A stretch of 32,000 nt of DNA from Candidatus Saccharimonadota bacterium (GTDB lineage: Bacteria > Patescibacteriota > Gracilibacteria > BD1-5 > UBA2023). A model generated the notes under the pieces. The model searched no databases and had not been told where the DNA came from. It was given only the letters and a program-made list of their open reading frames with translations. A program made the translations under genes and the position numbers. Position 1 is the stretch's first letter, and each line of letters opens with the position of its first letter. This document shows, in pieces, positions 1 to 32,000 of this stretch. The stretch lies in NCBI GenBank assembly GCA_046350815.1, contig JAXLZO010000001.1, positions 90,001 to 122,000 on the forward strand, written 5' to 3'.

Positions 1-574
1 TCCGCTCAAAATATTTGCCATATACGAAGGAGGAATGAGTTTTCACGGTTGACTCATTGGAGTGATAATTGCAACCTTTTTCATTGCTCGCTGACTTCCA
101 CAGTCTGATTGGATCAATTATGCAAGGTCATTTCGAGAGAGATTCCTGATACTTATTGACCATCTTGCTTTGATAGCGCCATTTGGGATTGCTCTCGGAA
201 GATTTGGTAATTATATGAATCATGAGCTCCTTGGAGCAAGTGGCTATACCTGACCACTTGCGGTAGCGATCAATAACATTTCCTATTTTCCATCACCACT
301 CCTCGAGATGTTACTTGAAGGAATTCTCCTTGGAACCATTATTCTCTGTATATCAATTTTCAAAAAACAAAGACGAAGTGGAACACTTGCTCTTATATTT
401 GCTATTGGATATAGTATCGCTCGTTTTATTTCCGAATTCTTTCGTGAACCAGATGCACAACTAGGATATCTCCTTGGAGGAATGAGTATGGGACAAATTC
501 TCTCCATCGTGATGTGTATATTTGGATCTTTATTTCTTCTCTCTTTGATGTATGCGCCGAATCGAAAAAAATAA
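1..574 (+). CDS. lgt: prolipoprotein diacylglyceryl transferase, 5' end cut by window edge
   Basis: Frame starting at base 2 reads ...IYEGGMSFHG[TGA 50-52]LIGV...GRFGNYMNHELLG...FPSPLLEMLLEG...FREPDAQLGY..SMGQILS, the Lgt signature blocks. It has three in-frame TGA and a TAA stop at 572-574. Confidence 0.85.
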
Positions 575-1151
575 TGCACCTCTCACCAAAATCCTCACTG
601 TCTCAGCCATTATTGTTACCATGCTCACTACTGCAGAAATTGCAGGTTATAGCAATCTTGGACTCTGGCAATACACTGGAATTCAGTTGAATAATATCAT
701 AGATACTATCGTTCAAGGTCTTTTTATGCCACTACGTCACGCTGGAGTGCTCCATCTTCTGGGCAATCTCCTATTTCTCTGGTATTTCGGTGGACCAATC
801 GAGCGATACATCGGTACCTATGGTTATTTTATAGGATATATTCTCACGCTCATTGTGACACTCATTGGACTCTCACTGTTTGCACAATGACCAACTGCTG
901 GAATGAGTGGATTCTGACTTGCACTTCTCACTTTTCTCGCCATGCATCTGACGAAAATACATTCATCAGAAGCAAAAGGAGCATGGGTATTTGTCGTACT
1001 CAATATTGCCATGGGACTCTTTGGAGGAATATCACTCACAGCTCACCTCTTCGGTGCAATCGGCTGAGTTATGTGGTATCTCGGTTGGAGAGCACTCTGA
1101 TCACCACATACCAGTGAGAATCTTAATCTACCTGGACTTTCGACAAGATAG
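552..1151 (+). CDS. rhomboid-family intramembrane serine protease
   Basis: ATG at 552 overlaps the lgt end. Motifs: HAGVLHLLGNLLFLWYFGGPIERYIG, a GxSG block (AGMSGFGLALL) after in-frame TGA 888-890, and AHLFGAIGG (second catalytic His). TAG stop at 1149-1151. The start could instead be the internal ATG at 621. Confidence 0.8.
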
Positions 1152-1189
1152 GATGAATCTTTTAGTTTACTTTGAATAACAAAATACAA

Positions 1190-1214
1190 ACCCCCTTATC
1201 GGGGGTTATTTTAT
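1190..1214. terminator. bidirectional intrinsic terminator between convergent rhomboid and PPIase genes
   Basis: Stem aaccccc (1190-1196) / gggggtt (1202-1208), loop ttatc, followed by attttat. An A/T-rich run sits on the other side. Confidence 0.7.
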
Positions 1215-1248
1215 CTGTCATCCTGAACTTGATTCAACATCTTGATTC

Positions 1249-1833
1249 CTACTCAACTGATTTCACCTCTACTTCCAATGTAAGAGACTTTCCGGCAAGG
1301 GGATGTTGTCTCGGATGTGAGAGGACTACAAATTCATCATCAAGAATCTGTTTGATAGTATACTTTTGATTGTTCCAAGTCGTAGTGGCTCAAGTTGCAA
1401 TTTTGTCTGGATCAAACCATTCTTCCATACCGGAAGCATCAGATCGAGTGATCTGTGATCTTCGGACGATATCTTCTTGTTCGGCAGTTCCATATGCTAC
1501 GGATGGATCGAGAAGTACCGATTTTTTGTCTCAGGATTTCATACCAAATAACTGTCGATCAAGCTCCGGGAGTTTGTTGTAAGATCCGAGTTGTTCCTCT
1601 TTTCCGATATGTATCTGTATTCAGAGTTTTTCTTGAACAATAACACCGGAAGAATAGAGACGATAATCGATCATTGCTACGGATCCTGAAGCAATCGCAA
1701 TAAGGGGTTTTGATACTCTATCATCTTTCTGCGACGAGAGAGTCGTTTTCTCCGATGAATTACCACCTGAAAGCGAACAAGAGGCAAGGGCGAGGGCGAT
1801 GATTGTGAGAAGGGTGGTTGTTTTGATATGCAT
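1249..1833 (-). CDS. FKBP-type peptidyl-prolyl cis-trans isomerase, predicted lipoprotein
   Basis: Starts MHIKTTTLLTIIALALASC (lipobox LASC). After merging across TGA 1621-1623, 1531-1533 and 1390-1392 it reads ...IDYRLY..G...LFGMKSGDKKSVLLDPSVAYG...HPLAGKSLTLEVEVKSVE, typical of SlyD/FkpA-type FKBP domains. TAG stop at 1249-1251. Confidence 0.75.
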
Positions 1834-1842
1834 AGTGCAAGA

Positions 1843-3495
1843 TTAATAATTAGCAGTTCATGATATGGTACTTTGAACAGAAGATCAATCATCGTTGTAA
1901 CATGTCAGTGTTGTATTTACAATAGGATTGATGTGGCTTATTGCTACACTATAAGTACCGGTCGTTGCTACATTATTCTGATAACCTGAGAGATTACAAT
2001 ACTTGGTATAACTTGACTGCCACTGTATCTCTGCACTTTTATTACTGTTCGCAAGGCCAAGATTGTTTATTTGCAAAAGGTTGATTTTGGGTTCTGGTGG
2101 AGGTAAAGTAAGTTCCGCTGTAGACATAGTACCTCAGAGTCCATAGCAAGTTATCATATATGTTCTACTACCTGTGGTAGGCATCTCAAAATACTTTTTA
2201 TCGGAATATACCCCACTTATTCCTTGCTTAACTAAATCAATCTCCTGTGTGTCATTACTCACAAAATAATAAGAATAAGAAGTATAAGGGTCGCTCACTA
2301 AGCTCTTAAAATTCTTCAATTGACATTTTTGTGCATTCGTGACAGACCAAGAAAGTGTAGCGGGAATCATCTGAATGTGATCTCTACTAACGAAGTGTCT
2401 ATAATCGGTCCTATCTGCACTCAAGAGAATAGTTGGTCTCTGTGGGTCAAGAACTTGTACAGTGATAGATTTTGATGTTGATCACTCTCAATTGATACAT
2501 GTAAGCGTATAGGTTTGAGAGCTTGTGAGATTTGTGAGTCTTTCAAATTCATAATTTCCAGTAGCCTTTGACCCCGACCAATCATTACTTGCCGTACAAG
2601 ACGTAGCATTCGTTGTCGACCATATCAGGACAGTCGATCAATTGTATGCTACAGTATTGCCGCTCGCACTGAAAGAAACAATCGGTAGATTCTTTGTTGC
2701 GACAACCACGGATGTTGAATCGACTTGACTTTTTGTATTCTTATTGATACAACGAATCACAAAGGGTCCAATATTACCGGATGCGGATCAAACACTTATG
2801 GCAACACCACTTGGTACCAAATATCATCCGGATGTGTTCGTCGCATCTAATCCAGGCGATCATTGAATAAAGGAACAAGACTCGAGGTTCTCACCGATAG
2901 ACCAATACAAACTGAAGGAAGATTGCTTATCAATAATTGGTGAGCTTGGTTGTAAAAGAATTTCATCTGGATTCGGCTGTGTCGAGGACGAAGTTCCGTT
3001 CTGTGTCGAGGACGAAGTTCCGTTCTGTGTCGAGGACGAAGTTCCGTTCTGTGTCGAGGACGAAGTTCCGTTCTGTGTCGAGGACGAAGTTCCGTTCTGT
3101 GTTGTGGACGGAGTTCCGTTCTGTGTCGAGGACGAAGTTCCGTTCTGTGTTGTGGACGGAGTTCCGTTCGGTTGTGTGATTTGTGTTATTTGCTGAAATA
3201 TTTGTTGCGTGGCTGCATTTACGATACATCGAGGTGTGCCATCTCCTTCAAAACCTATAATAACACCGTTGGGACAACTTTGTCAGGTGGTTGCGTCTCC
3301 AAAAGCATTTCGAAAATAATTCATCATTGTGCCACCTTCAGCTTCTCCTGCTGGAGCCGAATTTGGCCAGGTAATCGGTGTATTTGCCCATACAATGGAG
3401 CCGGTAAATACGACGCCAAGAGCCACACTACATGTACCAAATGCCACAAGTCATTTGGTCCATTGCGATTTTCGTCACTTTCAGATGAATTTCAT
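1843..3495 (-). CDS. secreted or surface protein: N-terminal signal anchor, Ser/Thr-rich octapeptide repeat linker, four Ig-like modules
   Basis: ATG at 3495 gives MKFIGKGRKSQWTKGLVAFGTCSVALGVVFTGSIVWA. This is followed by QNGT(S/P)S(S/T)T x8 and then four roughly 85-110-aa modules, each ending in a ...TY.LTC(I/Y)N-like strand (for example WSTTNATSCTASNDWSGSKATG...TYTLTCINGEGS). It is one open frame in code 25 with TAA at 1843-1845. Standard-code fragments 2134..2424 and 1885..2127 share its frame. Confidence 0.7.
2979..3170. repeat. 8 x 24-bp head-to-tail tandem repeat inside the surface-protein CDS
   Basis: Unit is gtgtcgaggacgaagttccgttct. Copies 1-5 and 7 are identical. Copies 6 and 8 are the variant gtgttgtggacggagttccgttc(t/g). 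It encodes QNGTSSST / QNGTPSTT on the minus strand. Confidence 0.95.
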
Positions 3496-3654: not shown

Positions 3655-4317
3655 TTATCTCAATTGCATCGCGGGTTTCACTTCCTTGTAGTACAATTCC
3701 TTTGGCACCTCAATAATCACAGCTCTTCCATCAAAGCTCGTAAGAAACCGCACCATGCTCTGGTTATCTGGATTGACTGGATTAATAAAGAACGTTCGTC
3801 CTCAGAGTGCTGTAGTTTCCGTAGTTGTATAGAGCTCACCGATAGCGCTTGGGAGTTTCTCACGTACTGTGTTGTAGTTTGCTCAACAGACTGTGACAAT
3901 CAGTCCATTATCAGCCCTATAGGTTGTTGTCGCGATGAGACGAGATAGTGTGAGGAGCACACGTGATCATTTTGGATCTACTTGAAGTTCTGTTGAGCCA
4001 AATATTTTCACGAGTGATGGTGGTAATGCAAGGGACTTTGCATTCGTGTTATCTTCTTTATTTTCTTGTTTTTGTGGGTTCTCAATGGGTTTTGTCTCAG
4101 ATGTCTTTGATGGTACTACACTACTTGTACTCGATAATAATGATTGTCTCCCATCCTGAAACCCTATAGGAATCTGTCCTGTTTGTTGTGATGGTTGACT
4201 GAGACGCTCTGCGAGAGAAGTAACCTGCTTACGATAATCTGGTGAAAACCAAGACATGAGCAGGTTTACAAAGAAAAAAGCGAGAAGCGAATAAATAAGG
4301 ACAATTCCCGTGCGCAT
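3655..4317 (-). CDS. hypothetical membrane-anchored protein
   Basis: MRTGIVLIYSLLAFFFVNLLMSWF is an N-terminal TM segment, followed by a Ser/Thr/Gln-rich linker. The frame continues through TGA 3967-3969, 3883-3885 and 3802-3804 to TAA at 3655-3657. I recognise no family motif. Confidence 0.6.
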
Positions 4318-4344: not shown

Positions 4345-4896
4345 TTAGTGAGAGCGAATGCTTGCAAAATCAAGCTCTACTGGCGTTTCACGTCCAAGGA
4401 GATTTACGCTTACTGTTACCTTTCCAACAGTCTCGTCAATCTTGGTTATCACACCTTCGGATCCCTCAAATGGAGCTACTGTAATTGTCACGATATCGCC
4501 AACTTGATACTTGATATTATAGGTTGCACTTTGTTCAGAAAGCACCCCTTTGAGACGTTCAAGCTCTTCACCACGAACTGGAACTGGTACAGTACCAGCA
4601 CCCAGAAACCCAGTTACATTTGGAGTATTACGAACAATATACCAAGATTCATTCGTCACAAGCATCTTCACGAGAATATATCCTGGAAAAATATTCTTCT
4701 TACGTACGGTTTGTTTTCCAGCTTGAGAAATATTGATCGTATCATGAAGCGGAACAAATACATCTAAGAGAAAATTCTCAAGACCAAATGCCTCACGACG
4801 CTGCATAAGAGACTGACGAACATTCTCCTCAGTTCCAGAAATTACACGGATGACATACCAATCACCCTCTTCAGCAGAAATGCTATCGAAAAACAT
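4345..4896 (-). CDS. nusG: transcription termination/antitermination factor NusG
   Basis: ...GDWYVIRVISGTEENV...IFPGYILVKM...TPNVTGFLG... plus a C-terminal KOW block (YQVGDIVTITVAPFEGSEGVITKID). TAA stop at 4345-4347. Classic secE-nusG order. An ATG at 4896 is preferred over the TTG at 4911. Confidence 0.9.
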   Translation of the reverse strand: MFFDSISAEEGDWYVIRVISGTEENVRQSLMQRREAFGLENFLLDVFVPLHDTINISQAGKQTVRKKNIFPGYILVKMLVTNESWYIVRNTPNVTGFLGAGTVPVPVRGEELERLKGVLSEQSATYNIKYQVGDIVTITVAPFEGSEGVITKIDETVGKVTVSVNLLGRETPVELDFASIRSH

Positions 4897-4898
4897 AT

Positions 4899-5297
4899 TT
4901 ATTGTGCTCAAGAATTAGAACGTGTACCAGTTGAGGACGATGGAGATACAAGATTGGCCCCTGTCATGCTTCCTGTTGCTGTTATTGCACCAGTTGATAG
5001 AGTTACACCACTTGCCGAGAGAAGCTTGTTAATATCAAAATCTTCTGGGAGATTCGATTGCGTTGTACTATCTTGAATATGTAATTTTTCACGAATGATA
5101 TCTCGAGCTCCAAAAAGTGATTCTCGGAAAGCAATACCAATAATTGAGAGAAGAATGGTCATACTAATAATTACTCCAAGAGTAATTAAGAGGTATTTGA
5201 TAGCATCAGGGCGACTTGGCCATGCAACATGTTCGAACTCTTTGACAGAATTTGTCAAAGGTGAAAATAATGAAGAACTTTCTTTTTTCTGTGACAT
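4899..5297 (-). CDS. secE: preprotein translocase subunit SecE with a long C-terminal extension
   Basis: MSQKKESSS..VKEFEHVAWPSRPDAIKYLLITLGVIISMTILLSIIGIAF matches the SecE (V/L)xWP + TM pattern. The track stop at 4908-4910 is TGA, so in code 25 the frame runs three more codons to TAA at 4899-4901. It sits immediately upstream of nusG. Confidence 0.8.
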
Positions 5298-5353
5298 AGG
5301 AATTTTTGCGATTGAGTATAGGAAAACTTGAAAAGAAGTCAAAACAGAACTCG

Positions 5354-5375
5354 AAAATCCCCACATGGGGATTTT
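5354..5375. terminator. intrinsic terminator overlapping the stop of the giant ORF
   Basis: aaaatcccc (5354-5362), loop acat, ggggatttt (5367-5375). The TAA of the giant gene is at 5375-5377. Confidence 0.65.
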
Positions 5376-8300
5376 TACTCATAAATTCCATTAAAACGGT
5401 AACATGTTCAAGAACCATTAGGACAGGTATCCGAATAAATAATTCAAGGAAGTCACCAACACGTCGTTTGTCCATTATTTTTGAGTGCACATGTCTGGTA
5501 TCCACCGACTATTGCAATCTCAGTCACATCTGAAAGTCCGATTGGAACAGCTGTTTGACCATGATCATTCGAACCCCAGCACTCCACCGTCCCATCATTC
5601 TTAACTACACATCCATGTTGATAACCAATATTGAACTTAGACACATTAGTAATAGCTGGAATACTGGAATCAACAGTAGGAGATCCACTCACGTTATACT
5701 GCCAACATACCAATCGAGAATTAGGTTGTTGAATAGCACAAACATCATTTGTTGTTCACCAATGAGTACCAACCAAATTGGTCAAAGAAGATGTTCATGG
5801 AACAACAGATGCGTATGAATTATAGTTTTCACAAATCGCTCAGCCACCTGATTTTAATCAGCAAAGATGATGTAGATTTGTTATCTGAACAATATCATAA
5901 AAGGTACTAGATAGGTCAGTTCCATTGCCATAACTCGATCATCACCAACAAAGAACGGTATGATCCGATCGAATAACACATGCTGATGCAGGATAACTTT
6001 CAGAAACAGCAACTTGCAAAATACCTGATAATCAAGATGGCATATTTGCAGCTATATCTCACCAACATTGAACATCACCATCGGTGCTCAAGGCACACCC
6101 ACCATATTGTCAATTTTGAATCTGATGAAAGGTACCAGAAAGCGCTGGTGTTGTATCAGCCCATATATTGATGCCACAATTAATATGATTAGAGAGATAT
6201 GTTTCCATGTGATGAGAATTACAGAAACGTGGAACATTTTCAGCAAAATTAAACTGATCTGGGGTGAGTAGCATGGTATCCAGAGGACTTATAGGAGTAG
6301 GAACATTAACCGGATGACCATTACCATCATCGTCCAGAACTCCATCATCATTCATATCATAGAGTGTTTTATCATCTAAATAACCACACGTCAGACTTTG
6401 GTCAGAATTAATTCTACAAACTTCTGGATATACAGGACTAAACCATGGACTCCATTGTTTTGTACTACTCATGTTTTGGTCGTTAAACACGACATTTGGT
6501 AGATTCATCTGAAACTCTCAAGGCACATCTTGGAGGGCACCTGTCAATGGATGAAAACAAGTTATTGTCTCATCATTTTTTAGTACACACGTACTATCAA
6601 TATCTGTCTCATGATGGTCAAAATTTGGAGCACTATCGATGTCAAGGATATTATTTATAAGTGTATTCGGTATGGATCAATTGTTATTAACAAAAGACAG
6701 AGCGTTGATATGTGATATATCGGTTGTATTTGATGAGTTATTCGAGTAAAATCCCCAAGAAATAACGTTACCATCAGATTTTCTTGCATAAGTTCTTCAA
6801 GCCGTATTAGTAATCTGTGTTACTCAAGAAAGACCCGAAGGAACATGCGTCTGACTATATCAACTACTTCACCAACATTGTACAGTACCATTATTTTTAA
6901 GAGCACACACATGCTCTGCTCATACTGATACCTGCTTTACATTCGTCACATTTGACGGAACATTTGTTTGGCCATATTGGTTATTACCCCAACAAACGAC
7001 ACTGCCATCGTTGCGAACAACACACAACGTTGATATCTTTGGAACCATTGTTGTTCCTTGATCTACACTATTAAACCCAGATATTTGTCGCACCGAGTCA
7101 ATCGGAAAGTTTGGCTTTGATGCTGACCAAGAGAATCACCAACAAACCAGCTGACCGTCAGATTTTACCGCACATGTTTCCCCATTGAGTACAAGAATTT
7201 GTATTACACCTGAGAGTCAACCCGGTACATTATTTTGCCCAAGAGCATTGTCTCATCACCAACATGCAACCGTACTATCAGAGCGAATAGCACACTTATG
7301 ATCACTTGCAACACCAATTCTCTTCTGATCATATGAAGCTACGTTCGATCCAGTTACTCATTGTGGAATCTCGAGCAGATTTTGAAATGAAACCTGGGAT
7401 CGGTCATTTCGTCCCCAACATACGATAGTACTATCAGATTTGAGAGCACAAGTATGAGCTCAACCGGCAGACACTTCAGCAATATCACTCAGACCTGATG
7501 GAGTGTTATTTTGCCCATAGCTATTCGATCACCAACAACTCATGGTGCTATCAGATTTGAGGGCACAAGTATGTCCATATCAAGAAGAAATACTTACTAC
7601 ATCGGATAGTCATGATGGTATATTTGTTTGACCGTTGCCGTTATACCCCCAACAGCGAACAAATCCTGTTTGGATCAAGCTACAAGTAAAATTCGAACCA
7701 GCTGATACCTCCATAACTCCTGAAAGGTCTCATGGAACCAACGATTGATTCGATCTGTTGTCACCCCAACATTCCACTGTTTTATCAGATTTGAGGGCAC
7801 AGGAATGATAGGATCAGAGTGAAATACTAACAACTCAGGTGAGTCCAGGAGGAACATCTATTTTTCCATATTCATTATCTCACCAGCATTCGACGGTTCC
7901 ATCTGATTTGAGGGCACAAGCATGATTATCTCATACGGAAACAGCAGTTGTAGAGCTCAATCATAATGGAACCTCGAGGAGACTACAATCAACAGTACTA
8001 TCGGATCGTAGGTTACAGGTATTCATACTACCAGCAGCAACTTGAACAACGTTGTTCTGTATAGTATCATTATTTGCAGAACATAGTGCTGATCATGATC
8101 GTAGAACACAGGTATGGTCAGCTCACAGACTTATATTTGCACCTTCATGAACAAAACTCGTAATCGTAATCGGTCGAAGATCCTCTGGAATATCCGTTTG
8201 TCCGTTATCATTGTTTCACCAACAAACGACCGAATTATCAGACTTGAGGACACAAACATGATACGATCCAACGGTGATATCAATAACGTTAGATAATCAA

Positions 8301-11300
8301 CTTGGTATATTTCATTGACCATTGCTATTATCTCACCAACATTCCACGGTTCCATCAGATTTAAGTGCACACGCATCAGTATTACTATTTGCCACCTTCA
8401 CGGCATTCGTTATTGGTGATGGAGGTGTTACGGAGTTACACATAACACTTGTATCATATTGCACAGAGCATATTTCTATACCCAACATGGTAGATCAAAT
8501 TGTATCAACCTCATTACGAAATCAAAGAGAATTTCCCCCAATACATTGCATTTTTCCATTTGTTTGGAGAACACACGTAGTATAGTTGCCTGCAACTACT
8601 TCAATAATATCATGATTCAAACCATCTGGAATACTACTTTCAGAATAATTATTACTTCACCAACACTCTACCGTATTATCAGATTTAAGTGCACAGGTAT
8701 GACCATCTCATGCGGAGATTTGGACTACATTCGTAAGTCAAATGGGTACATCGTTTTCACCAGAATAATTAAATCACCAGCACTCTATTGTTCCATCTGA
8801 TTTGAGGGCACAGGTGTGAGTTTGACCACTCGTTATCTGAATAACGTCATTGAGTCCTGATGGTGGTGTTGCAAGACCTAAATAATTATTTCACCAACAT
8901 TCTACTGTCTCATCAGTCTTAATAGCACAACTAAATGCATGTCCAGCAGAGATTCTCTGATCTTCATAACGAGTGCTGGCGAGATTAAGTGGTGTGAATC
9001 CAGAACCAAATGGAACTGGGGAGTCACTCTCTCATTCCCAATTTGATCACCAACAGATAACCTGATTACTCGCATCTCTCGCACAGACATGAGTAGGACT
9101 CGTAGCAATATCAATGGCAGAAAGTGAAGATGGAATCATATTTTCACCATGTATGAAGGTGCTTTGAGTAAAACATTCAACACTACCATCAGCCTTCATA
9201 GTACAAAGATTACCTCCTCCAGCACTGATTTTCACGACATTATCCACTCAGATATCACCAGATATTGTTCACCAGCAGAAGACTCGACCAGTCTCACGGA
9301 GAGCACACGTATAAGCAGATCATGCAGCAAGCTGTGCAACACGAGTCAAAGTCGGAACATCCGTTTGTCCCTCACTATCAGATCACCAACATGTGAGAGT
9401 TCTATCAGATCTCAAAGCACATGAATGATAGTCCCCACTTACAACTTGTACCACATCAGTGAGTCATGAAGGTGGAGTGGTTTGCCCATTATCATTGAGA
9501 CCCCAACATTCGACGGTTCCATCTGATTTGAGAGCACAGACATGGCTTGCTCCTGCTGAAATCTGAGTTACATTTGAGAGTCATGAAGGTGTGGTGGTTT
9601 GTCCATCGTCATTAAGTCACCAACATTCGACGGTTCCATCTGATTTGAGAGCACAGGTATGAGATGCTCAAGCACTGATTTGAGTGACATTCGTGAGTCC
9701 AGATGGTACGGTAGTTTGCCCATCAGCATTGAGACCCCAACATTCCACAGTAGCATCAGATTTGAGAGCACAGGTAAACTGATAACCAGTCGTCATACCT
9801 TGATCCTCAAATACTGGTTCTGTTATTGGACTACTTGCTATTCCGCCAAACCCGGGTGGAACTTCGGTTTGACCATCCATTCATTGTCACCAACATGCAA
9901 TGGTATTATCCGATTTGAGGGCACATGTATGAGATCCTCACATAGAGGTGCTAATTTCAGTAACACCAGAAAGTGTCATTGGCACGTCGGCTTGACCATC
10001 ACCATTATCCCCATCACACTCGACACTACCATCAGTATGAACCAAGCAAGAGTAATATTCTCCGGCACTGATATGAGCAACATTCGAAGCTCCTGAGAGA
10101 TCCCCATTCGATCACCAGCAAACTACCGAATCATCAGTCTTAATAGCACAAATATGTTCATCACCAGCTGATATTTGCTTCACAGTACCAATGTCACTTG
10201 GGAAATTATCTTGTCACGATCACATATTTCACCAACACTGCATTCGTCATGTATCTTTGAGTGCGCAAGCAAAATTCCAACCAGTTGCAATTTGAACAAT
10301 ATGATTTAGTTCGCTTGGCACATTTGTTTGTCCATCACTATTATCTCACCAACACGTAACGGTTCCATCAGATTTGAGGGCACATACATTATTATAGCCA
10401 ACACTCATCTGAACAACACCACTTAATCATACCGGAACATCCGTCTGTCATCACGATGGGTCTCACCAACATGATACTATTCAGTCAGATGAAAGAGTAC
10501 ATGCAAAACGATATCATGCACTGATCGCTATAACATTATCGAGACCGATAGGTATATCAAGCTGTCATGCGTCATTTGCACCCCAGCACTCTACCCCACC
10601 AGTTGAGGTAATTGCACATGTAAAGTTATTACCTGTTGTGAGGCGATGATCGTCAAAAACAACTGAATTAAGGATAACAGGAAAGTTTTGAAGCTCTTCA
10701 GGAACCGGTAAGTATCCAAAAAGATTCCAGCATACAACACTACTATCGGATTTGATAACACAAGTGTGTTCCCTGCCAGCGGATATTTGAACTACGTTTG
10801 AAAGATCAGGTGGAACATAATTTGAGCTCACACTCCAACCATCACTATTCCAATATTCTCACCAACACTCGACGCTACCGTCGGATTTGAGTGCACAATT
10901 ATATGAAGAATCAGATGAAATTTGTGTAACATCCGCAAGTCATGGAGGTACATATGCAGCCGGGTTTTCTCATTCCATATTTATACCCCAACACTCGACG
11001 GTCGCGTCGGATTTGAGGGCGCAAGTATGGTATTTACCAGCTGATACCTGAGTAATATTAGAGAGTCATAAAGGAATATCGATTTGACCATTATCATTCG
11101 AACCCCAACACTCGACGGTCGCGTCGGATTTGAGGGCGCAAGTATGGTATTCTCAGGCGGAGATTTGAACTACATTGGTCAATCATGACGGCGGAGTAGA
11201 TTGTCAGTACCAATCAGCTCCAACACACTCTACGGTTCCATCAGATTTGAGGGCACAGGTATGTTCTCATCAGGCGGAAATTTGTGTAACATCAGAGAAG

Positions 11301-22516: not shown

Positions 22517-22792
22517 ATGGTACAAGGTACTAAGCTCTACGTTGGAAACCTCTCTTGGAAGACCAGCGATGATTCACTTCGAGCATTTTTTGCTTCAACT
22601 GGTGATGTTACTTCAGCAAGTGTTGCACTTGAGCGTGATACTGGACGTTCTCGTGGATTTGGTTTTGTCGAAATGGCAACTCCTGAGGCTGCACAAGCTG
22701 CAATCGACGCACTCAACGAGCAAGAGCTCGACGGTCGAAAAGTATTCGTTTCCGAGGCTCGTCCTCGCGAAGATCGCCCTGCACGATACTAA
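22517..22792 (+). CDS. RRM-type (RNP-1/RNP-2) RNA-binding protein
   Basis: MVQGTKLYVGNLSW (RNP-2) ... RGFGFVEM (RNP-1) ... RP.EDRPARY tail. TAA at 22790-22792 and no in-frame TGA. Visibly GC-richer than its neighbours. Confidence 0.9.
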   Translation: MVQGTKLYVGNLSWKTSDDSLRAFFASTGDVTSASVALERDTGRSRGFGFVEMATPEAAQAAIDALNEQELDGRKVFVSEARPREDRPARY

Positions 22793-22953: not shown

Positions 22954-25900
22954 ATGGCATCACCAGACAAATATAGCCCCTCCGTAGAACAAAAAGATTG
23001 CCCACCAGAGCTCAAAGTGAAACTCAAGTGAAAAAAGAATGAATGGCAGGACAGAGCAAAGTCTTTTAATACAAAATCTTTTGAAGAACATAAATCAGAA
23101 ATATCAGATGTCAAAAAGGCAGCTGATACTTTTATGGCTCAGTCAGTACTTGAAAACATCACCCTCAATGCTGATGACAAGGCATTACTCAAATACATGC
23201 GAACTCTCAGCGTGGACAAACCCATAGACATATCCATTATGCAAACAATGCTTCATGATGTCTGTGACAAAACCATTGCAGTGGATGGTCGAATGGGCGA
23301 ACAAACTATAACTGCCATGAAATTGGCAATGGAAAAATTTAAAAGTAAGATCCCTGGTTACCAGGAGTGATTAGTTGTAGGAGCCAAGATTGATGCTGCA
23401 ATAGCACCTGTTATTGATATTCCCTCTGTGAAGATACCAGCAAAACCAGCGCAAGTATCAGGCGATAGTTTGTCTGCGACAGAAAATGATTTTTCCATAT
23501 CAATACAAGAAAAAGTAAATAGTTGCAAAACATTACTAAAAGCAAACTATCCAGGATTGTGAGTCCAAATCAATGAAAAATGAGATCTTTTCATAAGACA
23601 AGATGTGATAGGAAGTTCCGATACGAAACTTCAAAAAATTGCAACTATTGATCTCTCAAAGACAGAAGATATTGCCTGGGATAATATACGAGTTGCTCTT
23701 GAAGAATATATAGCAAAACAGAAAGTCAGTGCACCAGCTGTTATATCAACACAAACGGAGGCAATTTCTACAGACAAACAGACCGTAACGAATGAGTCAA
23801 ATCAGATCGATGTTAAGGCTGAACAAACCAAAAAAATTCAGCTATCTCCAGAGCAAGATTCTGATGATAATCTCAAAACAATAGAAGCAGACTGGAACAA
23901 AGTAATGAATCAAGCAGAAGAATATGCAAGGAAACAATGATTGATTTTAACAATGGTGAAAACAGGTGCTGTTGTCAAATCTATGGGAGCATCAAAATTT
24001 AATCCGATTGAAATTTATGATATTTACGTAAAAAAAGAGGGGCAAACCAAAGCAGAAAAAATAGGAACATCCCACCCTGTACATTTAGAGCGAAAAGTTG
24101 ATATTCAGGGAAAAGTAAAAGATATACAAGTTTTGGTTGATAAGTATCTAAAGCATGATGCTGTCAAACCACAAGAAGTAAGCCAGGAAGCCGTGGATAA
24201 AGCTTGGTATGAAGGTTTTGACGAAGCATCAAACTATGCCAAAGATAAATGATACATCCTTACAAACCAAGCGAGCGAATTGACAGCAAAAGGTTGAAAT
24301 GCGAGCCGTCCTAATATTGATAAAGGGAAACTTCAAACAATTGCTCTCGTAAATAAAAATAAAAAGGAAAGACGAGAACTTTGAACAATTTCAGTAGAAA
24401 AGATTCACCTTGTGTCGATAAAAACCCCTCAGGAAATAAGGGATGAAATACAAAAAAGGATAGATGAATCACTTGCAAGAACAATGACAGAATCACAAGA
24501 AAATAAGACACGGACAGAAAATATCACAAAAATCGATACCCTCCTTCAAAAAATGTGATATTCCTTAGATTATGTTGACGGTAAAGCAGGAAGAATGTAT
24601 AAGAATCAAAATAATGAAAGACTTCAAGTATTTTGATGATTCTCTTGAGTTCCAAAAGATCATACTCTCACAGATTCAGAAATAAGATACAATTTATTAC
24701 AAAACAATAAGCAAAAAGATTTGCAACAACAAATTGATAACGCGATGAACGGTAAAATAAACTCTGAAGCAAATGAACAGCATTCTGAGAAAATATTCAT
24801 ATCAAAAAAAGCTCTTTCTGAATTTAAAACATTAGGAATTACTCTCACAAAACAAGACGATGGTATCCATGGAGATTTTGATCAAAATAAACATTTTATG
24901 GGTCTAAATACATCATTTGATAAGAGTGGAAAATTCATCAAAACCGAAGAATGGCCAGTGAGTAAAAAAGTATGAGAGGAATTTTTTATAGATAACAAGA
25001 CAAAATCTGTAACCTTTGAAAATGGGGTATTCACATTTATAGATAAAGATGGTTCAAAAATGACATCAGTGCTTACCGAAGTAAAAAACCAGCCGATGGA
25101 TCAAGAAATGATCAATAATTTCAAAAATGATGCCCCAAATTCTGTACAGGTTCTCTCAGCGACAGATTTAGAGATCAAGCTCAAAACAATAGCTCCGAGT
25201 GTTAAGACAAGATCATTTAATATAAAGAGCGCTGTAACAACGTGATTTGATGAGGTTCTTTGAGAAATTACTTTTAATGCAACTAAAGAAGATTCATTTA
25301 CAAAGATGCTATGGAAAGACGAGCGAATATCAGGAAGTATTATTGCGCAACTTGCATCTCGAGGATTTGTTCTTGATAATTGGATACAACCAGTTGCTGA
25401 TATAGAATCTCGTTCATGAGACAATGTTATGGTGATACCACATCCAGATGGAAAAGGTTTTGCAACGGTTTGTAAAGGTGGCGGAGTCCATGTTTACAAC
25501 AAGGATAACATAAACCCAAGTACGGTATTTGCACGTAAGCCAGTCATCTATCTCTATCCGATCAAGAAGACGAAAATCTCAGTATCAGTTGAACTCTCAG
25601 GTGCTGATATGATCACAGAATATCCAAGAACTACGAATGGTATATGGAAAGTGGAAGCATCACCGAAAGGAAACCTCGTTGATATATATGACAAGAAGAA
25701 ATACTCATACCTCTTCTGGGAAGCTGCAAAACATACAAGTTTTACGCTCAATCCGGAAAATACGGATTGTATTGCAAATGTCGATGTACAAACTTATCTT
25801 GAAAAGTCTCTCAAAACCCTTGGTCTCAATGCCCGAGAAATGAATGATTTTATGGTATATTGGCTCCCAATACTTGAACAAAATCCATACAGTCTTATCG

Positions 25901-26106
25901 AGTGGAAAACGACTGAATATACTGATATGGCAAAGCTGCATATTTCGCCAAAACCCGAAACACTTATTCGAATATTCATGGTCTTCAAATGATCAGAACA
26001 AATAGTAGCTACGAAGAACGTAGAGCTGCAGAAAACGAGACGAAAAGGATACTCCGTGGTAGAATGGGGCGGATGTAATCTCGATGAGAAGAACAATATC
26101 AAATAA
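22954..26106 (+). CDS. 1,050-aa hypothetical protein with an N-terminal peptidoglycan-binding-like module and a conserved-looking C-terminal domain
   Basis: Fragments 23134.., 23605.., 23941.., 24721.., 25060.. and 25429..25992 all lie in frame 1. I read every codon from 22954 to 26106 and found only TGA interruptions, with TAA at 26104-26106. ...LLKYMRTLSVDKPIDI..IAVDGRMGEQTITAMKLAMEKFKSKIPG resembles PG_binding_1 (xDGxxGxxTxxAvxxFQ). The C-terminus reads KPVIYLYP...YSYLFWE...LGLNAREMNDFMVYWLP. No signal peptide or TM segment seen. Confidence 0.7.
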
Positions 26107-26289: not shown

Positions 26290-27594
26290 ATGTCAGAAGT
26301 TCCATCATATCAAGCAACTCGTGGGTTCGATCCGGAAATAGGTCCTGGCTACGACCCAAATGCGAAAGTGGAAGAAAAAATAGCTAAACCCAAAGATCCT
26401 CTCATAAAAACGGAAAAACTTGATAAAATCAAGTGATTAACGAGTACGGATTTACGTACAAATCTTCTGAATACTGACACATCCAAATTGAATCTCGAGA
26501 CGACAACTCGCTATCTTATTGCACTCACGCAAGAAATTAACATCGCAAAACTACAAAATCAAGATACAATGCAACAATTTCTTGGGAAATTTCAAGCAAT
26601 TCAAGAATCTTATCACAATCTCATCGGTTCATGAACCATTAGCGAATGATCTCAAAAACTTAGAGAACAAATAGAACTATGTCTGGAGTCTATTCAAAAA
26701 GGTCTAGAATCAAAAGATAAAGCACCATGATATATCTATGAACCACTTGAACAAGAACTTACAGAAATGGAAATAGACGACACAATAAAAAATGTCGATC
26801 AGCTCCTCAAAAATAAGCCATCTATGATATTCGTATGAGTAAATAAATACAACCACAATAGGAATATGAATCAAATGATGGCAAGATACTTAACAGCTAA
26901 TAAGCCGATTCCAAATTGGGAGTTGCGTGGTGCTGTGGATGACGCAAAAATTGTCGCTCAAAAAATTGAGTGATATCCATCATCAAACAAAGTAGAACTT
27001 CATGATGAGATGGCAACAAAAGAGGCAATTCTTAATGCCATAAAAACTTCACCATCAGACAAAGATATCTTCCTCTATATGTCCTGACATGGTGTGGATG
27101 GACACTTTGTACCTTATACAAAAGGTGTTATAAGTAATATGGATAAATCCGTTTTACAAATCATGATCAGTCCAGTGGAGCTATTTGAGGCAATCGGAAA
27201 AAGAAAGGCAGTTGTTATTGTTGATCATTGTTTTAGTGGTGATCTTGTAATGTCAGCACCAGACAATATCACCATTATCTGAGCAAGTGACTCTATGACA
27301 ACAGCACTAGATACTATCAAGAATGATAGTAGTATAAAATCAGAAAAAGGATTAGTAATAAGGAATGAAATAGTGACTGGAAAAAGAGAAAAAATACAGA
27401 TTGTAAAAGGAGAGAAAGTGATGAAAAGTGAGGATATCTTTTGATGAAAAGCAACCTTTGGTCTTACAGGTAATAAAAACATTCCACTTGATATCCGTTG
27501 ATTTGTAGACAGTGCAAGAGCAGTAAGTCATCTACGTGATCACAATCAACAACCTACAATCAATGCAGGAATAACAAGTAGCACAAATCTATAA
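26290..27594 (+). CDS. caspase-like cysteine protease (peptidase C14 / caspase-HetF fold) with an N-terminal helical domain
   Basis: ATG at 26290, frame 1, eleven in-frame TGA, TAA at 27592-27594. Hallmarks: MIFVGVNKYN, RGAVDDAKIVAQKI, catalytic His in IFLYMS[TGA 27085-27087]HG (YxSGHG), and catalytic Cys (27229-27231) in AVVIVDHCFSGD (DxCxSG). Confidence 0.85.
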
Positions 27595-27616: not shown

Positions 27617-27647
27617 AAAAATAGAGTGTCATTGGCACTCTATTTTT
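27617..27647. terminator. bidirectional terminator between the convergent caspase-like and kinase/HExxH genes
   Basis: aaaaatagagtg (27617-27628), loop tcattgg, cactctattttt (27636-27647). Confidence 0.75.
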
Positions 27648-29628
27648 CTATATCATTTCTATCTTGACTCTCATCAATAACATCCGCTGGCTCCGTCTTG
27701 ATACGATCCATCCATACTTGCTCTTCACCAAGAATATCACTTGGTTCAGTGTCAATACGATTCCTCCAAGCTCTCCGCTCAATCAGAGATGCGAACATTT
27801 TCCAATCAGAAACTGGAAGAAAAGAAAGAATCTCAATAACATTATCTCTTCCTTCTATTGTATTGCCATATACTCGCATAATATATGTAAGTATATCAAA
27901 CATGATCTCATCAAACTGAGGATGGGTATCTACCCTATAGAGGTCATCTATCAGAAAGATTCTTGTTATCTCTCGTATATCATCCCCATTCGAGAGATAA
28001 GCGATGATCTCCTCTTTGAGTTTCCAAAGAAGTCGATCTTCTTCCCTATCATCGGAGAATAATGCCTTGTTGATGGTGGCGTGTCTCGCCTCATGTATGA
28101 GCGCTCTCTCGTTTGGAGTTGTGATGATGACACTATATTTTTTTCAAGAATCAAGATATTTTCTCGTTGCGAATGCGCCCATTCTACCTCTTTCTTCTGG
28201 TATGAGAGATTGATTAAACGCATCTCGATCAGAAAAAACTACCCCAACAGCATTCCCTATGAGACATAACCGTGCATTCTTTGATGTAACCTCAGCAAGG
28301 TCTCAAAAACCATCGATTCAACCAAGAATTTTCTTTGGATCACCTCAGGAATATAAAAGTGCTTCGAGAGAATTCTCAAAACCATCTCGGTATATACCCA
28401 GAGATTCAAAAGCAATTTTCAGAATAGTTATTGTGAGTAATCTTTGTTGTTCTTGGGTGGCTTGACTAAAGAATAACGTCATATGATCAACAATCGGTAA
28501 CAAAGGCTGACGATCAAAAGATGATCGGATAAATCGAACCATAGCACCACCCAGTTCAAGTTGCCGAAGTATAACTTCTGAAATAGGAAGATGGAGAATT
28601 TTTGCCTTTGATTTTAGATCCTCATCCAATCGAATATTTTCAAATTCTAACATTCGACTGATACAAAATTCACTATAATCCCCCGATACTCCTCCAGAAA
28701 GACGTGGTGCTGAACCATGAATAACAGATAATATATTATTCTCGGGGAAATCAGCAAAATTTAATCATCAAACTTCCACTTTGACAGAAATATCAGAATC
28801 ATCATATTCCTCATTCTGAGGAGTTCTGATTGATATTTCTGTTGGTGTTCTCGTAGGTGTATCAATAGGTGTCGTATCCTTTATTGATAAATGAAGGTTC
28901 TGATGATCAACTATTGCCTGCGAAAGCCATAATATATCATCCAAATCTTTCTGTTTACATTGCTCAAAATATGGACTATTCTTATCTATACCAACTGGAT
29001 CAAATATAGAAAATTCTATCGTGCTCGTTCAACAGTTATTATCGATACGCATAAGGATATTTCACAAAATATCACCATGAGCAATACCTGCTTGATGATA
29101 TTTATCAATCGTATCAGAGAGCTGTTCGAGAAAGAGTGGAATGGTTATTTCAGTGAATTCTTCCGAATCATTACGATTGAGAATCTGCAATAGATTTGTA
29201 ATGTGCCAACCCTCAACCTTCTTTGTCACCAGAAATCATGCGTCTGCATGAAAAGTTATTGGACTAACAGTGTGATACGGATCAACACTATACATACTAC
29301 AAAGAACCCTATATTCCGCCTCAAAATCATCAAAAACCTGACCAAATAATTTTGGCACGGTTCTTTTCTTTTGATATTTCACGTAATAGTCATCAGGAGG
29401 ATACTTAACCGTGATTTTTCCTTCACCAACATTAATCATTCAATCACAAATACTCTTAATAGGTGGAATATACCCATGAGAACTATTTTCATTCACAGCA
29501 GATATATCCTGAAAAGACGAAAGAATATCCCAAACACGGGAGGCAGTATTTACTGGCATATCTGTGAGAATTTCATGAGGGATTACGGATCCTTTTTCAC
29601 TCCCGTACGATACTTGTTGATTTTTCAT
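27640..29628 (-). CDS. fusion protein: N-terminal protein-kinase-like domain plus C-terminal HExxH (zincin-like) domain
   Basis: I read each codon from 29652 to 27640 and found only TGA interruptions, with TAG at 27640-27642. The kinase-like catalytic loop is IAHGDIL[TGA]NIL (H 29077-29079, D 29071-29073, N 29059-29061). Also FSIFDPVG (DFG-like), ITVKY and FEAEYRVL upstream, a TPxxTP linker, then VIITTPNERALIHEARHA (HEARH = 28081-28095). ATG at 29628, with an alternative TTG at 29652. Confidence 0.75.
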
Positions 29629-29732
29629 TGTTACGTATTCTAATAATTTCAATCATCATAGCATAACTCTTTATTTTTTACAAAAAATAGCAAGTTCTTT
29701 GTCATTTAAAAAATACTTGTCAAGTAACTTTA

Positions 29733-29792: not shown

Positions 29793-30944
29793 ATGTTTGA
29801 AAATTTCCAACCCACTCAATCAGACTCTGAATGTAAGAGAAAATGAAGAGAATCTCGTGAAAGAAATCCTTCATCACGCAATGTGAGAGAAGAACTTAGA
29901 AAGCACCAAGCAAGTATAGATGCACGTGTGTGAGACAAAAAACCAAGTGTAGCGATCAACAAAAAAACTCTCCTCGACGCAGATATTACTCGTATTGGCC
30001 GAGGGAGTGTTATGGCATGGATGCTCAATGGCGGTAAAGAAGATATTGGACGGAAAAAGGGCATAGATGTAAACGAAATAGAATCTATCAATTTTTACAA
30101 AGCCCTCGACCGAGCATGGCAGATGAAACTTCGAAAATACGGAGCACGCAACCCATGACTCCATAAATTCTATCAGGAACGTATTATCCCATTCACAAGA
30201 TGAGGTCAGAATTTCTCAGCCATATCACGAACTGATTTTAACAACAAGGTTTCCCATGCGTTGAATAATGTAGATAAGCATCTTGAGCTAAATACCATTT
30301 TTTCTCAGGATCCACTACGAAAAAAAACATTTCTGAAGATCAAAGAAATTATGGGAGTCAATCAAGTTATTGCTGTTATGTACAGTGAAATGATTGACTC
30401 ACAGAATCCCAAAAAAGCAAATACCTTCTTTAATTTTATTCTCAATAATGCGGGGGAAGAATTTCTTGAGCTTTTTCCAGCCATGTGAGATAAGTATCTC
30501 TCATATGGCCCAGCACAGTTTACAAAGTTTACAATAGGAAAAGATGGAAGTGCTATTGCATTTCAAGATGATCATCTTAGCGCTAATATTATTGCAGAGA
30601 ATATGCGAGATATCAAAAAACAAGATCACTACGAAGGTATCTACATTATCATGTTATCTTCACTTCAGTGACTCCTTCGTAGTTTAGATAAAAATGAAAT
30701 ACGAAAACTTGAAAAGTATATTATACAATCCCCGGAAAAAGCACGAAATCTCCTTGTACAATATATAGCTGCCGCTCACAATGGACCAACTGCGGCAAAA
30801 AGAGCTTTTATATGACATATTCATGCTAATATTCGTAACGACACATTGAATGTTCATGGAAGGAAAGAAGCCTCAAATAATGCAAAGAAAGCGAAAAAGA
30901 ATGAACGAAAACTTTCACAAAGTTATCCACATCGAAATGGATAG
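29793..30944 (+). CDS. hypothetical protein, possible divergent GH23 (lytic transglycosylase/lysozyme-like) fold
   Basis: ATG at 29793, seven in-frame TGA, TAG at 30942-30944. The N-terminus is basic. VNQVIAVMYSEM.., ..LSYGPAQFT.. and ..LLVQYIAAAHNGPTAAKRAF parallel the ES / GLxQ / AYNAG blocks of the SLT domain at 15328..16707, but with a roughly 30-aa insertion. Weak. Confidence 0.6.
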
Positions 30945-30958
30945 CTAAATTAATATTT

Positions 30959-30994
30959 AAAAACAATAACCAAGATTTCTTGATTATTGTTTTT
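30959..30994. terminator. bidirectional terminator between convergent genes
   Basis: aaaaacaataaccaag (30959-30974), loop attt, cttgattattgttttt (30979-30994). 16-bp stem with one mismatch. Confidence 0.65.
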
Positions 30995-31016
30995 CGTAAT
31001 TCTTTGATAAATGAGC

Positions 31017-31901
31017 CTATCTCCTCTCCTTCCGAATCTTCTCCGAATACTGACTATCATTTGCAAACTCTTCCGAAAGATCATTGATCTGATAGTACTC
31101 ACGCGCCTCCGCAAGTGGCAATGAAGTATCAATGAGTCAAAGGTCATAAGCAATCTCATCAGAATGCGATGGAAGAAGGATTCTCTTGTCCCAACCAACC
31201 TTGTCTGTTCGGAGAGCATTCACATGACGAAGAATGCTCGTAGTGCAGGTATTCCAGATAGTATTATAGAATTCAGGTTCCTTTGTCAGTTTGTCCGCTC
31301 GGTGCATAGCCGAGAGAAACAGTCATTGCATCTTATCCTTGGATGTTTTGATTGGATACATATATACAGCATCTTTTCGATAGTTTGCACGTAATTTTAC
31401 CAAATCGTTCTCATCACCAACAATATAAGTAATTTCGAACTGATTCATCAGTCCTGGGAGAACATCGAATGACTCTCCTTTTTCCTTGCGAACTTCAGCT
31501 GAAACCGTCACAAACACTCCTCATGAAAATCAGAATGAGAGCATGGTATGAGCAGGTCCATCATGTCTGGAGAATGGTTCTATTATGTAGTAAACTGACT
31601 CAATCTCATCGAGATTATAACTACGATTATAATATCATGGAGTATAATCAGTTGTCGATCGATAGGTAAAATTTCGAACATTCTTCACATCCACAAGATT
31701 TCCAGAAAAGGTGATAGCTGGGAGTACAGCATGATCTGTGGCCCAGTCACGATACAGTGAAGGCTTCTGAGAGAGCCACCAAGCAAGTCCAACCGTGAGA
31801 GCAATCATCAAACTAACAAGGAATACTCGCTCCCATATATACCAGGTGGCTTTTACAAAAAAGAAAAGAACTTTAAGAATTTTTTTTAGAAGAGGTGGCA
31901 T
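31017..31901 (-). CDS. DUF4105 (Lnb N-terminal-like) membrane protein
   Basis: ATG at 31901 with an N-terminal TM segment (VFLVSLMIALTVGLAWWL). ..VDVKNVRNFTY.., ..GPAHTMLSFGFS.., ..VSAEVRKEKGESF.., ..YNTIWNTCTTSIL.. match my recollection of the DUF4105 pattern. Fragments 31635..31901 and 31323..31517 share the frame. TAG at 31017-31019. Confidence 0.7.
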
Positions 31902-31947
31902 AAAATGAAATGGGGCTATTAATTTCTACACTAAAAAGGGACAAAAT

Positions 31948-32000
31948 ATGAAAAGTGTAGAGATGAAGAGAATTTTTGCAAAGGATTTATGAGAAAAATT
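31948..32000 (+). CDS. possible start of a gene running off the window (17 codons only)
   Basis: ATG at 31948, MKSVEMKRIFAKDL[TGA]EK.. Too short to evaluate. Confidence 0.2.

Follow-up and report, generated by a model that had tools for sequence, protein, structure and literature searches.

Reading frames and stop codons

The question raised by this locus is how its UGA codons are read. With translation table 11, the longest ORF in the window (the whole stretch of 32,000 nt analyzed here) is 211 aa. When TGA is dropped as a stop, ORFs of 2327, 1063, 695, 676, and 649 aa appear; dropping TAA or TAG instead yields longest ORFs of only 355 and 215 aa. Modeled with TGA as a sense codon, the window holds 22 genes (Table 1), which cover 93% of it and contain 212 in-frame TGA codons. 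Of the 22 genes, 20 carry at least one of these, including all those above roughly 190 codons, and UGA, counted as glycine, makes up about 26% of the glycine codons. The genes end in TAA (15 of 22) or TAG (7 of 22), never in TGA.

An earlier sequence-only reading of this DNA had claimed that its conserved genes are broken by TGA and never by TAA or TAG, and had proposed comparing gene calls under table 25 with those under tables 11 and 4. The ORF calls bear this out, as do the Pfam matches: single matches to LGT, Rhomboid, Glycos_transf_4, VTT, SLT, PGI, NTP_transferase, and Hydrolase_3 span TGA codons, and the four GyrB domains, Lnb_N, and 33 RCC1_2 repeats are likewise unbroken across them. 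No TAA or TAG interruption was seen in the conserved genes of the window. All seven of the TGA positions listed in that reading are in-frame TGA codons, in exactly the peptide contexts it quoted.

ORF length carries this argument only so far. First, tables 4 and 25 open identical frames, so length alone cannot tell them apart. Second, a code with only two stop codons gives rise to long spurious antisense ORFs, such as one of 695 aa opposite gyrB, and length alone is thus no evidence for a gene in the window.

Table 1. Gene models in the window with TGA read as sense. On minus-strand genes, TGA reads TCA on the plus strand.
Feature	Coordinates	Strand	In-frame TGA	Remarks
lgt, 3' part	2..574	+	3	cut by window start; Pfam LGT E 1e-35, unbroken across TGAs
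Rhomboid protease gene	552..1151	+	4	Pfam Rhomboid E 5e-16
small lipoprotein-like gene	1249..1842	-	3	ORF span, start codon unrefined
550-aa secreted protein, NGTSSSTQ tandem repeat	1843..3495	-	13	no known family
220-aa protein	3655..4317	-	3	no known family; gene also called in L081, L082
nusG	4345..4896	-	0	0/15 Gly codons are TGA; Pfam NusG E 1e-24
secE	4899..5366	-	1	Pfam SecE E 8e-6
2320-aa RCC1-repeat protein	5375..12337	-	93	33 RCC1_2 repeats (Pfam E 2e-269)
glycosyltransferase family 4 (MraY/WecA-like) gene	12447..13616	-	2	Pfam Glycos_transf_4 E 5e-12
DedA/VTT-domain membrane protein gene	13628..14380	-	3	Pfam VTT_dom E 6e-12
284-aa protein	14468..15322	-	4	no known family
lytic transglycosylase (SLT domain) gene	15328..16707	-	8	Pfam SLT E 1e-9
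pgi	16773..17969	-	7	Pfam PGI
galU	17982..18839	-	2	Pfam NTP_transferase E 9e-29
HAD-family hydrolase (Cof-type) gene	18826..19683	-	6	Pfam Hydrolase_3 E 4e-11
gyrB	19698..21620	-	8	four Pfam GyrB domains
RRM-type RNA-binding protein gene	22517..22792	+	0	tblastn with L088 RRM_1 protein, 94.5% identity
1050-aa protein	22954..26106	+	17	no known family
clan-CD (caspase/legumain-like) peptidase gene	26290..27594	+	11	Pfam Peptidase_C14 21.4 bits, equal to cut-off
674-aa protein	27640..29664	-	12	no known family; public calls start 12 codons later (662 aa)
383-aa protein	29793..30944	+	7	no known family
Lnb_N-domain protein gene	31017..31901	-	5	Pfam Lnb_N E 2e-32

Several gene models have counterparts elsewhere. 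A 182-aa protein is called at the place matching the lipoprotein-like gene in L081, a contig of a same-species MAG; the 284-aa protein is matched in synteny by genes of equal length in L089/L090 and by one of 287 aa in L088; the 1050-aa protein is called at its full 1050 aa in L090 and at 806 aa in L089; and a protein identical to NusG is present in GCA_964536125.1 and in Logan contigs. The true start of secE may sit further downstream, public calls being 133–152 aa. The RCC1-repeat protein has a pilin-type N terminus (Pfam N_methyl, 20.2 bits), and a hairpin terminator lies 3' of the RRM gene at about 22797–22840. A search against Rfam at gathering thresholds found nothing in the window. UGA usage varies among the genes: conserved genes that are probably highly expressed (nusG, the RRM gene, galU, gyrB) hardly use the codon. 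In the RCC1 surface protein, which is giant and varies between strains, and in the caspase-like peptidase, it makes up more than one-third of the glycine codons.

The amino acid encoded by UGA

Four independent tests support the assignment of UGA to glycine, as in table 25: alignment to standard-code homologues, the RCC1 repeats, codon swaps among relatives, and composition. First, the eight TGA codons of gyrB (residues 22, 41, 111, 121, 218, 348, 403, and 531, including 21555–21557, 21258–21260, and 20028–20030) were compared with 77 standard-code homologues. Glycine is the commonest residue at all eight columns and reaches at least 90% at five, and tryptophan is absent from all eight. Summed log10 likelihoods favor glycine (−1.2) over the runner-up residue (−16.2) and over tryptophan (−25.5). 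The codon TGG, on the other hand, aligns with the conserved tryptophan of LWETTMDP in 74 of the 77 homologues. Escherichia coli GyrB has glycine at six of the eight sites, and the two proteins end at equivalent residues.

The same pattern recurs when GyrB, GalU, Pgi, and Lgt are aligned with their best PDB homologues: of 19 aligned TGA codons, 11 face glycine and none faces tryptophan. In lgt, the TGA at 50–52 is the second G of MSFHG-G-LIG, opposite which E. coli Lgt (5azb) has GGMSFHGGLIGV. In galU, 18801–18803 is the G of AA-G-xGTxFLPATKA, and PDB 7o2n has AAGLGTRFLPATKA opposite. In pgi, 17772–17774 is the last G of GIG-G-SSLG; the motifs GIGGSYLG and (I/V)GGRYSV of PDB 1b0z and 3ff1 face two of the TGA codons of this gene. 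A minority of TGA codons fall at variable positions (D/N at GyrB 111; T, A, I, and F in GalU, Pgi, and Lgt homologues), as is expected of any codon. The sequence-only reading had placed TGA on glycines of gyrB, pgi, galU, lgt, and the caspase-like gene, had judged tryptophan a misfit, and had proposed aligning GyrB, Pgi, and GalU. The alignments now obtained, with TGA mostly opposite glycine and never opposite tryptophan, agree for the first four genes. The caspase-like gene is the weakest case: its TGA at 27085–27087 directly precedes the predicted catalytic His-Gly, and in the sole PDB alignment, a weak one to legumain (E 0.14), the H-G and C-x-S-G motifs align and asparagine stands opposite the TGA.

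Second, the RCC1 protein offers an internal comparison. At the C-W-G blade motif, to which that reading had correctly drawn attention, the G is encoded by TGA in 16 blades and by GGN in 7. More broadly, 43 of the 50 TGA codons in well-occupied columns sit where other blades have a GGN glycine, and the log10 likelihoods again favor glycine (−22.7) over the runner-up (−81.4) and over tryptophan (−117.8). Third, against three related strains or species (L089/L081, the same-species MAG; L088; and L087), exchanges of TGA number 52 with GGN, 1 with TGG, 0 with TAA or TAG, and 17 with other codons. Among close relatives, UGA and GGN can stand in for each other. Finally, reading TGA as glycine raises glycine content from 6.0% to 8.2%, and reading it as tryptophan would bring tryptophan to 3.5%, which we consider implausible. 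Of the features by which table 25 is recognized, in-frame UGA, alignment to conserved glycines, synonymy with GGN, UAA/UAG stops, and clade membership are found here.

Alternative readings

Several other readings of these codons can be weighed against glycine. In the first, decoding of UGA is ambiguous or context-dependent, mostly glycine with some termination or tryptophan misreading, making it a costly or regulatory codon and not a clean synonym of GGN. The TGA share of glycine codons is indeed uneven, low in nusG (0/15), the RRM gene (0/7), the glycosyltransferase gene (2/31), and gyrB (8/58) and high in the RCC1 protein (93/255) and the caspase-like gene (11/29); moreover, a U34 tRNA-Gly(UCA) could in principle read UGG too (PMC8629427). 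However, no gene requires UGA as a stop, the sample is 22 genes, and the unevenness fits equally well with expression-linked codon bias or with faster turnover in fast-evolving genes. We consider this reading highly improbable. A related suggestion concerns the lineage: that UGA is not a neutral GGN synonym there, and that tRNA-Gly(UCA) may read it slowly or ambiguously, for example through UGG cross-reading or residual termination, which might be tolerated or even exploited in fast-evolving surface proteins. It seems to us a doubtful one, which would probably not hold.

In the second reading, UGA encodes tryptophan. This is table 4, used by Mycoplasmatales, Hodgkinia, Zinderia, Nasuia, and some Eggerthellaceae, and by several insect endosymbionts. 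As in table 4, UGA in the window has lost its stop meaning, and read-through gives an equal ORF picture; public gene calls even include exactly this GyrB with tryptophan at all eight TGA sites (P0131). The residue inserted, however, appears to be glycine. The GyrB and RCC1 likelihoods, the tryptophan-free GyrB columns with TGG meeting the conserved tryptophan, and the composition all run against table 4, and exchanges with TGG are nearly lacking, although TGA to TGG is a single transition. On the alignments, tryptophan is already refuted, and we give it scarcely any credence.

A third reading, decayed pseudogene debris or bad assembly under the standard code, could draw on the want of any table 11 ORF above 211 aa and on the 76–265-aa fragments that some public pipelines give for these genes, but it is already refuted, and the least credible of all, as only one stop codon of the three interrupts genes, frames stay intact across 2320 codons, 106 TGA positions are common to the window and L089, protein domains score at full length, and several sequencing runs independently gave an assembly of 100% identity. 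Selenocysteine or programmed readthrough was also considered and rejected, given 212 in-frame TGA codons over 20 of 22 genes.

Decoding machinery

With UGA read as glycine, the window is almost certainly a normal piece of chromosome from an uncultured bacterium of the Gracilibacteria type (Patescibacteria/CPR; class JAEDAM01 of current GTDB releases). This organism would translate by table 25, with UAA and UAG as its sole terminators. By analogy with the clade, a dedicated tRNA-Gly with anticodon UCA would read UGA, and release factor 2, which recognizes UGA, would have been lost, leaving RF1 alone to terminate at UAA and UAG; table 25, tRNA-Gly(UCA), and RF2 loss are all described for this clade (PMC8629427; PMC11452946; bioRxiv 10.64898/2026.05.24.727570). 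A tRNA of the table 25 type was defined by anticodon UCA together with the glycine identity elements G1:C72, C2:G71, G3:C70, and U73. ARAGORN found no tRNA in the 32-kb window or in related TGA-sense contigs, and no UCA-anticodon tRNA in 80 genome loci or related contigs. A scan of metagenome contigs with a pattern of anticodon loop, T-arm, and glycine acceptor end returned mainly tRNA-Glu(UUC), its only three UCA calls being SeC-type predictions on unrelated contigs. A 56-mer taken from the window's right end, used to extend the sequence, had no exact match in metagenome_contigs.

Taxonomic placement and comparison with known codes

In a rough neighbor-joining tree of GyrB, built without support values, the window nests among Candidatus Gracilibacteria/Altimarinota proteins and the TGA-sense contigs L001, L003, and L004; standard-code Peregrinibacteria-like contigs lie outside its group. 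Beyond its own species cluster, the nearest GyrB proteins are P0002 (89%) and those of “Patescibacteria group bacterium” (75–76%). The best GyrB matches that bear a name are Candidatus Gracilibacteria or Altimarinota. Identity is 69–71% to proteins named Candidatus Gracilibacteria and 68% to the best match among GTDB species representatives, which do not include the source contig, and no protein named Absconditabacteria is among the best 120 matches. The nearest GTDB contigs, labeled “Peribacteria”, were considered as standard-code relatives, which would have set the window at a code boundary; this was rejected because TGA stands at glycine-conserved columns in L001 (1), L003 (5), and L004 (15). 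L002, which clusters with L001, has a gyrB free of TGA and neighboring genes with many, and is likewise TGA-sense.

As in table 25 of Gracilibacteria, in-frame UGA falls on conserved glycines, stops are UAA and UAG only, and CGA/CGG are still arginine. Other shared traits are a moderate GC content (39%), a CPR gene set typical of small genomes, large surface proteins, and a pilin-like protein, and the window does not differ in kind from these organisms. Absconditabacteria (SR1), sister to Gracilibacteria inside JAEDAM01, also read UGA as glycine, as Campbell et al. reportedly described in 2013. There, however, CGA and CGG are predicted to encode tryptophan (PMC8629427). That extended code, in which the two codons are rare and aligned to tryptophan, is not seen in the window: CGA occurs 110 times per 10,000 codons (fewer than 37 are reported for SR1) and CGG 16 times, and in conserved GyrB columns arginine is found at 4 of 4 CGA and 1 of 1 CGG codons. 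Both align and swap with arginine, lysine, and glutamine codons, never with TGG, and no further reassignment appears in conserved GyrB columns. That CGA and CGG are still arginine argues against Absconditabacteria. The sequence-only reading had left Gracilibacteria or Absconditabacteria as the source; the GyrB tree agrees, and tree and arginine codons together point toward a Gracilibacteria-type organism and away from Absconditabacteria.

Public records

The window brings no new biology. UGA as glycine is already known and counts as textbook knowledge in this clade (PMC8629427; PMC11452946; bioRxiv 10.64898/2026.05.24.727570). For Gracilibacteria (BD1-5/GN02; “Candidatus Altimarinota”), passages of PMC8629427 and PMC11452946 credit table 25 to Rinke et al. 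2013 and Hanke et al. 2014. NCBI has listed UGA as glycine under table 25 since 2013, catalogues contain hundreds of genomes that use it, and automatic detection is available in tools such as Codetta and gTranslate (PMC8629427; bioRxiv 10.64898/2026.05.24.727570). The code setting must nevertheless precede any interpretation of the window. With table 4, about 2% of residues per protein are wrong, tryptophan replacing glycine, often at catalytic or nucleotide-binding positions; with table 11, every gene is fragmented, and the earlier warning that such a pipeline would report pseudogene debris is borne out by public fragments of these genes. Short table 11 fragments are stored beside the tryptophan version of GyrB, and one gyrB fragment is held at NCBI as a hypothetical protein of “Candidatus Peregrinibacteria”.

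Open reading frames and gene model

Read with the standard bacterial code (table 11), the window (32,000 bp, GC 39%) contains no open reading frame (ORF) longer than 211 amino acids in any of the six frames. When TGA is dropped from the set of stop codons, ORFs of 2327, 1063, 695, 676, and 649 amino acids appear; dropping TAA or TAG instead changes little, the longest ORFs then being just 355 and 215 amino acids, respectively. The seven TGA codons located by an earlier sequence-only reading, which had proposed that UGA encodes glycine here (table 25), are all in frame, and the peptide context quoted for each matched exactly; in minus-strand genes these codons appear as TCA on the plus strand.

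The read-through ORFs were searched against Pfam with every TGA masked by an X, to leave the amino acid open. LGT, Rhomboid, NusG, Glycos_transf_4, VTT/DedA, SLT, PGI, NTP_transferase (GalU), HAD Hydrolase_3, four GyrB domains, and Lnb_N were matched, each as one unbroken stretch spanning the masked codons. With glycine in place of TGA, SecE is matched as well, and so are 33 RCC1_2 repeats in a protein that begins with a pilin-type N-terminus; a caspase domain also scores, exactly at the Pfam cut-off. The resulting 22-gene model accounts for 93% of the window, with 212 TGA codons in frame; all 22 genes end in TAA (15) or TAG (7). The in-frame TGA pattern is real and far beyond chance.

A code with two stops also produces long antisense "shadow" ORFs, two of which are listed in the table. 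They match no family and overlap real genes, and for these reasons should not be called genes.

Coordinates of individual features in the window
Feature	Position	Strand	Description
Secreted protein	1843-3495	-	550 aa; eight tandem NGT(S/P)S(S/T)TQ copies
RCC1-repeat protein	5375-12337	-	2320 aa; 33 RCC1_2 repeats; type-IV-pilin-like N-terminus
Shadow ORF opposite RCC1 gene	8882-10309	+	475 aa
Shadow ORF opposite gyrB	19590-21677	+	695 aa; 14 TGA
gyrB-RRM gap	21676-22406		non-coding except for a 37-codon ORF
17-bp tandem repeat	near 21860-21900		tatttatcatcattctag
37-codon ORF	22267-22380
RRM_1 RNA-binding protein gene	22517-22792	+	91 aa; no TGA
Terminator	22797-22840		clear hairpin plus T-run, after the RRM_1 gene
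Large gene, protein family not recognised	22954-26106	+	1050 aa

The amino acid at TGA

Four independent tests (homologues, internal repeats, codon swaps, and composition) uphold the reading of UGA as glycine rather than as tryptophan, its meaning in table 4. First, the window GyrB was aligned to 77 standard-code GyrB genes, from genome contigs without in-frame TGA. Glycine is the commonest residue in all eight TGA columns (76, 76, 46, 74, 19, 73, 44, and 70 of the 77), and tryptophan occurs in none of them; a TGG codon of the window aligns with the invariant tryptophan of LWETTMDP. Summed over the eight columns, the log10 likelihood is -1.2 for glycine, -16.2 for the runner-up, asparagine, and -25.5 for tryptophan. 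Homologues of solved structure point the same way: E. coli GyrB has glycine at six of the eight sites, and the aligned TGA regions read AAGLGTRFLPATKA in YngB/GalU, GIGGSYLG and IGGRYSV in B. stearothermophilus PGI, and GGMSFHGGLIGV in E. coli Lgt. Overall, glycine stands opposite 11 of the 19 aligned TGA codons in these structures and tryptophan opposite none.

Second, 24 blades (repeats) of the 2320-residue RCC1 protein were aligned with one another, a comparison in which no database translation is used. TGA is concentrated in columns where other blades carry a GGN glycine. The G of the C-W-G motif, singled out in the sequence-only reading, is TGA in 16 blades and glycine in 7, with no other residue; the A-G before H-x-C gives TGA 9, glycine 14, and aspartate 1, and the G of G-Q gives TGA 6, glycine 16, and serine 2. 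Glycine has a log10 likelihood of -22.7, against -81.4 for the runner-up and -117.8 for tryptophan.

Third, orthologous codons were compared with three sources: the same-species MAG GCA_964536125.1 (contigs L081 and L089), the ENA contig L088, and the Logan contig L087, the last two with GyrB 95% and 89% identical to that of the window. Where one codon of a differing pair is TGA, the other is GGN in 52 cases, TGG in 1, TAA or TAG in none, and something else in 17. Many of the GGN partners are GGT, GGC, or GGG, two base changes away from TGA; TGA to TGG is a single transition, yet it was hardly ever observed. Finally, glycine content is 6.0% from GGN alone and 8.2% with TGA included, and reading TGA as tryptophan would put that residue at 3.5%. 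In the window, UGA is translated and behaves as glycine, and UAA and UAG terminate.

The share of glycine codons that are TGA is uneven, the sole feature that is mildly unexplained. It is low in nusG (0/15), the RRM gene (0/7), the GT4 gene (2/31), galU (2/24), and gyrB (8/58), and high in the RCC1 protein (93/255), the caspase-like gene (11/29), and the Lnb_N gene (5/13). Most likely this reflects ordinary codon bias; expression-linked codon bias, or quicker turnover in lineage-specific genes, may be involved.

Lineage and other codons

At GyrB columns at least 80% conserved, all other codons match the standard code. Shulgina and Eddy predicted that CGA and CGG encode tryptophan in Absconditabacteria and some Gracilibacteria (PMC8629427). 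In the window, by contrast, CGA is common (110 per 10,000 codons; CGG, 16), and both codons behave as arginine: in alignments and in exchanges between relatives they pair with arginine, lysine, and glutamine codons, never with TGG.

The closest GyrB matches are metagenome proteins at 95% and 89% identity, followed at 75-76% by "Patescibacteria group bacterium" and at 69-71% by one "Candidatus Altimarinota" protein and numerous proteins of "Candidatus Gracilibacteria"; the best 120 matches include none from Absconditabacteria. In a rough neighbour-joining tree of GyrB, the window is nested within a Gracilibacteria/Altimarinota group that includes the TGA-sense contigs L003 and L004. L001 and L002 form the sister branch of this group, and standard-code Peregrinibacteria-like contigs lie outside. 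The proposed source, Gracilibacteria or Absconditabacteria, thus holds, with the evidence leaning towards Gracilibacteria.

Three of these relatives, L001 (CAYUVP010000080.1), L002 (CAZJBQ010000006.1), and L003 (CP060226.1), are titled "Candidatus Peribacteria" in the genome collection and use TGA as a sense codon. The L003 gyrB has 5 TGA codons, all in columns with glycine as the commonest residue; the L002 gyrB has none, and adjoining genes have 5-14. What is wrong is the NCBI label "Peribacteria", misleading as to genetic code, and not the distribution of the code. The gTranslate preprint (bioRxiv 10.64898/2026.05.24.727570) describes the same kind of NCBI/GTDB conflict and assigns every table-25 genome to the orders BD1-5 and Absconditabacterales of GTDB class JAEDAM01.

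From published work on the clade, UGA would be read by a tRNA-Gly with anticodon UCA, and release factor 2 would have been lost (for the latter, PMC8629427; bioRxiv 10.64898/2026.05.24.727570). For proteomics on the alternative Gracilibacteria code, PMC11452946 cites Hanke et al. 2014. The 32-kb window has no tRNA gene and no Rfam match; the related contigs fetched contain no UCA-anticodon tRNA, and a pattern search of metagenome contigs did not bring up the tRNA-Gly. An exact 56-mer from the right end of the window had no match among metagenome contigs that would extend it.

Public records

Logan assemblies of SRR26348419/22/23 match the window at 100% identity, and its NusG and GyrB coding sequences are identical to those of GCA_964536125.1. 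The GyrB cluster of the species in the protein collection (P0001) has 70 members, P0127 among them. One, P0131, is the window GyrB in table-4 translation, with tryptophan at all eight TGA sites; many others are 76-265-residue pieces from table 11, one of them (NCBI MCA9378279.1) entered as [quoted passage not shown] On some Logan contigs, gene calls are fragmented likewise. The warning that table-11 pipelines would turn this locus into pseudogene debris is correct, and public data already show it.

The sequence-only reading was accurate in observation, interpretation, and taxonomic inference. The finding is a clean re-detection of a code already known, described in 2013, and seen here in its expected clade. 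Current tools handle it routinely, and any other reading of the window depends on setting the code correctly.

Individual loci

The RCC1 protein has the look of a giant surface or pilus-tip protein that varies between strains. Its N-terminus scores 20.2 bits against Pfam N_methyl, slightly below the 21.2 cut-off. The gene matches the same-species contig L081 patchily, at 97% over 1.4 kb and elsewhere at about 70%, repeat to repeat. The 550-residue secreted protein has several Ig-like segments containing cysteine and matches no Pfam family.

The RRM_1 protein is 94.5% identical to its L088 orthologue (GyrB, 95%). The gap between gyrB and the RRM gene is about 730 bp here versus about 117 bp in L088, and the 17-bp repeat lies within it. 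The large gene downstream is called at the same length in the Logan contig L090 and at 806 amino acids in L089; it is a second large gene of variable length in the locus.
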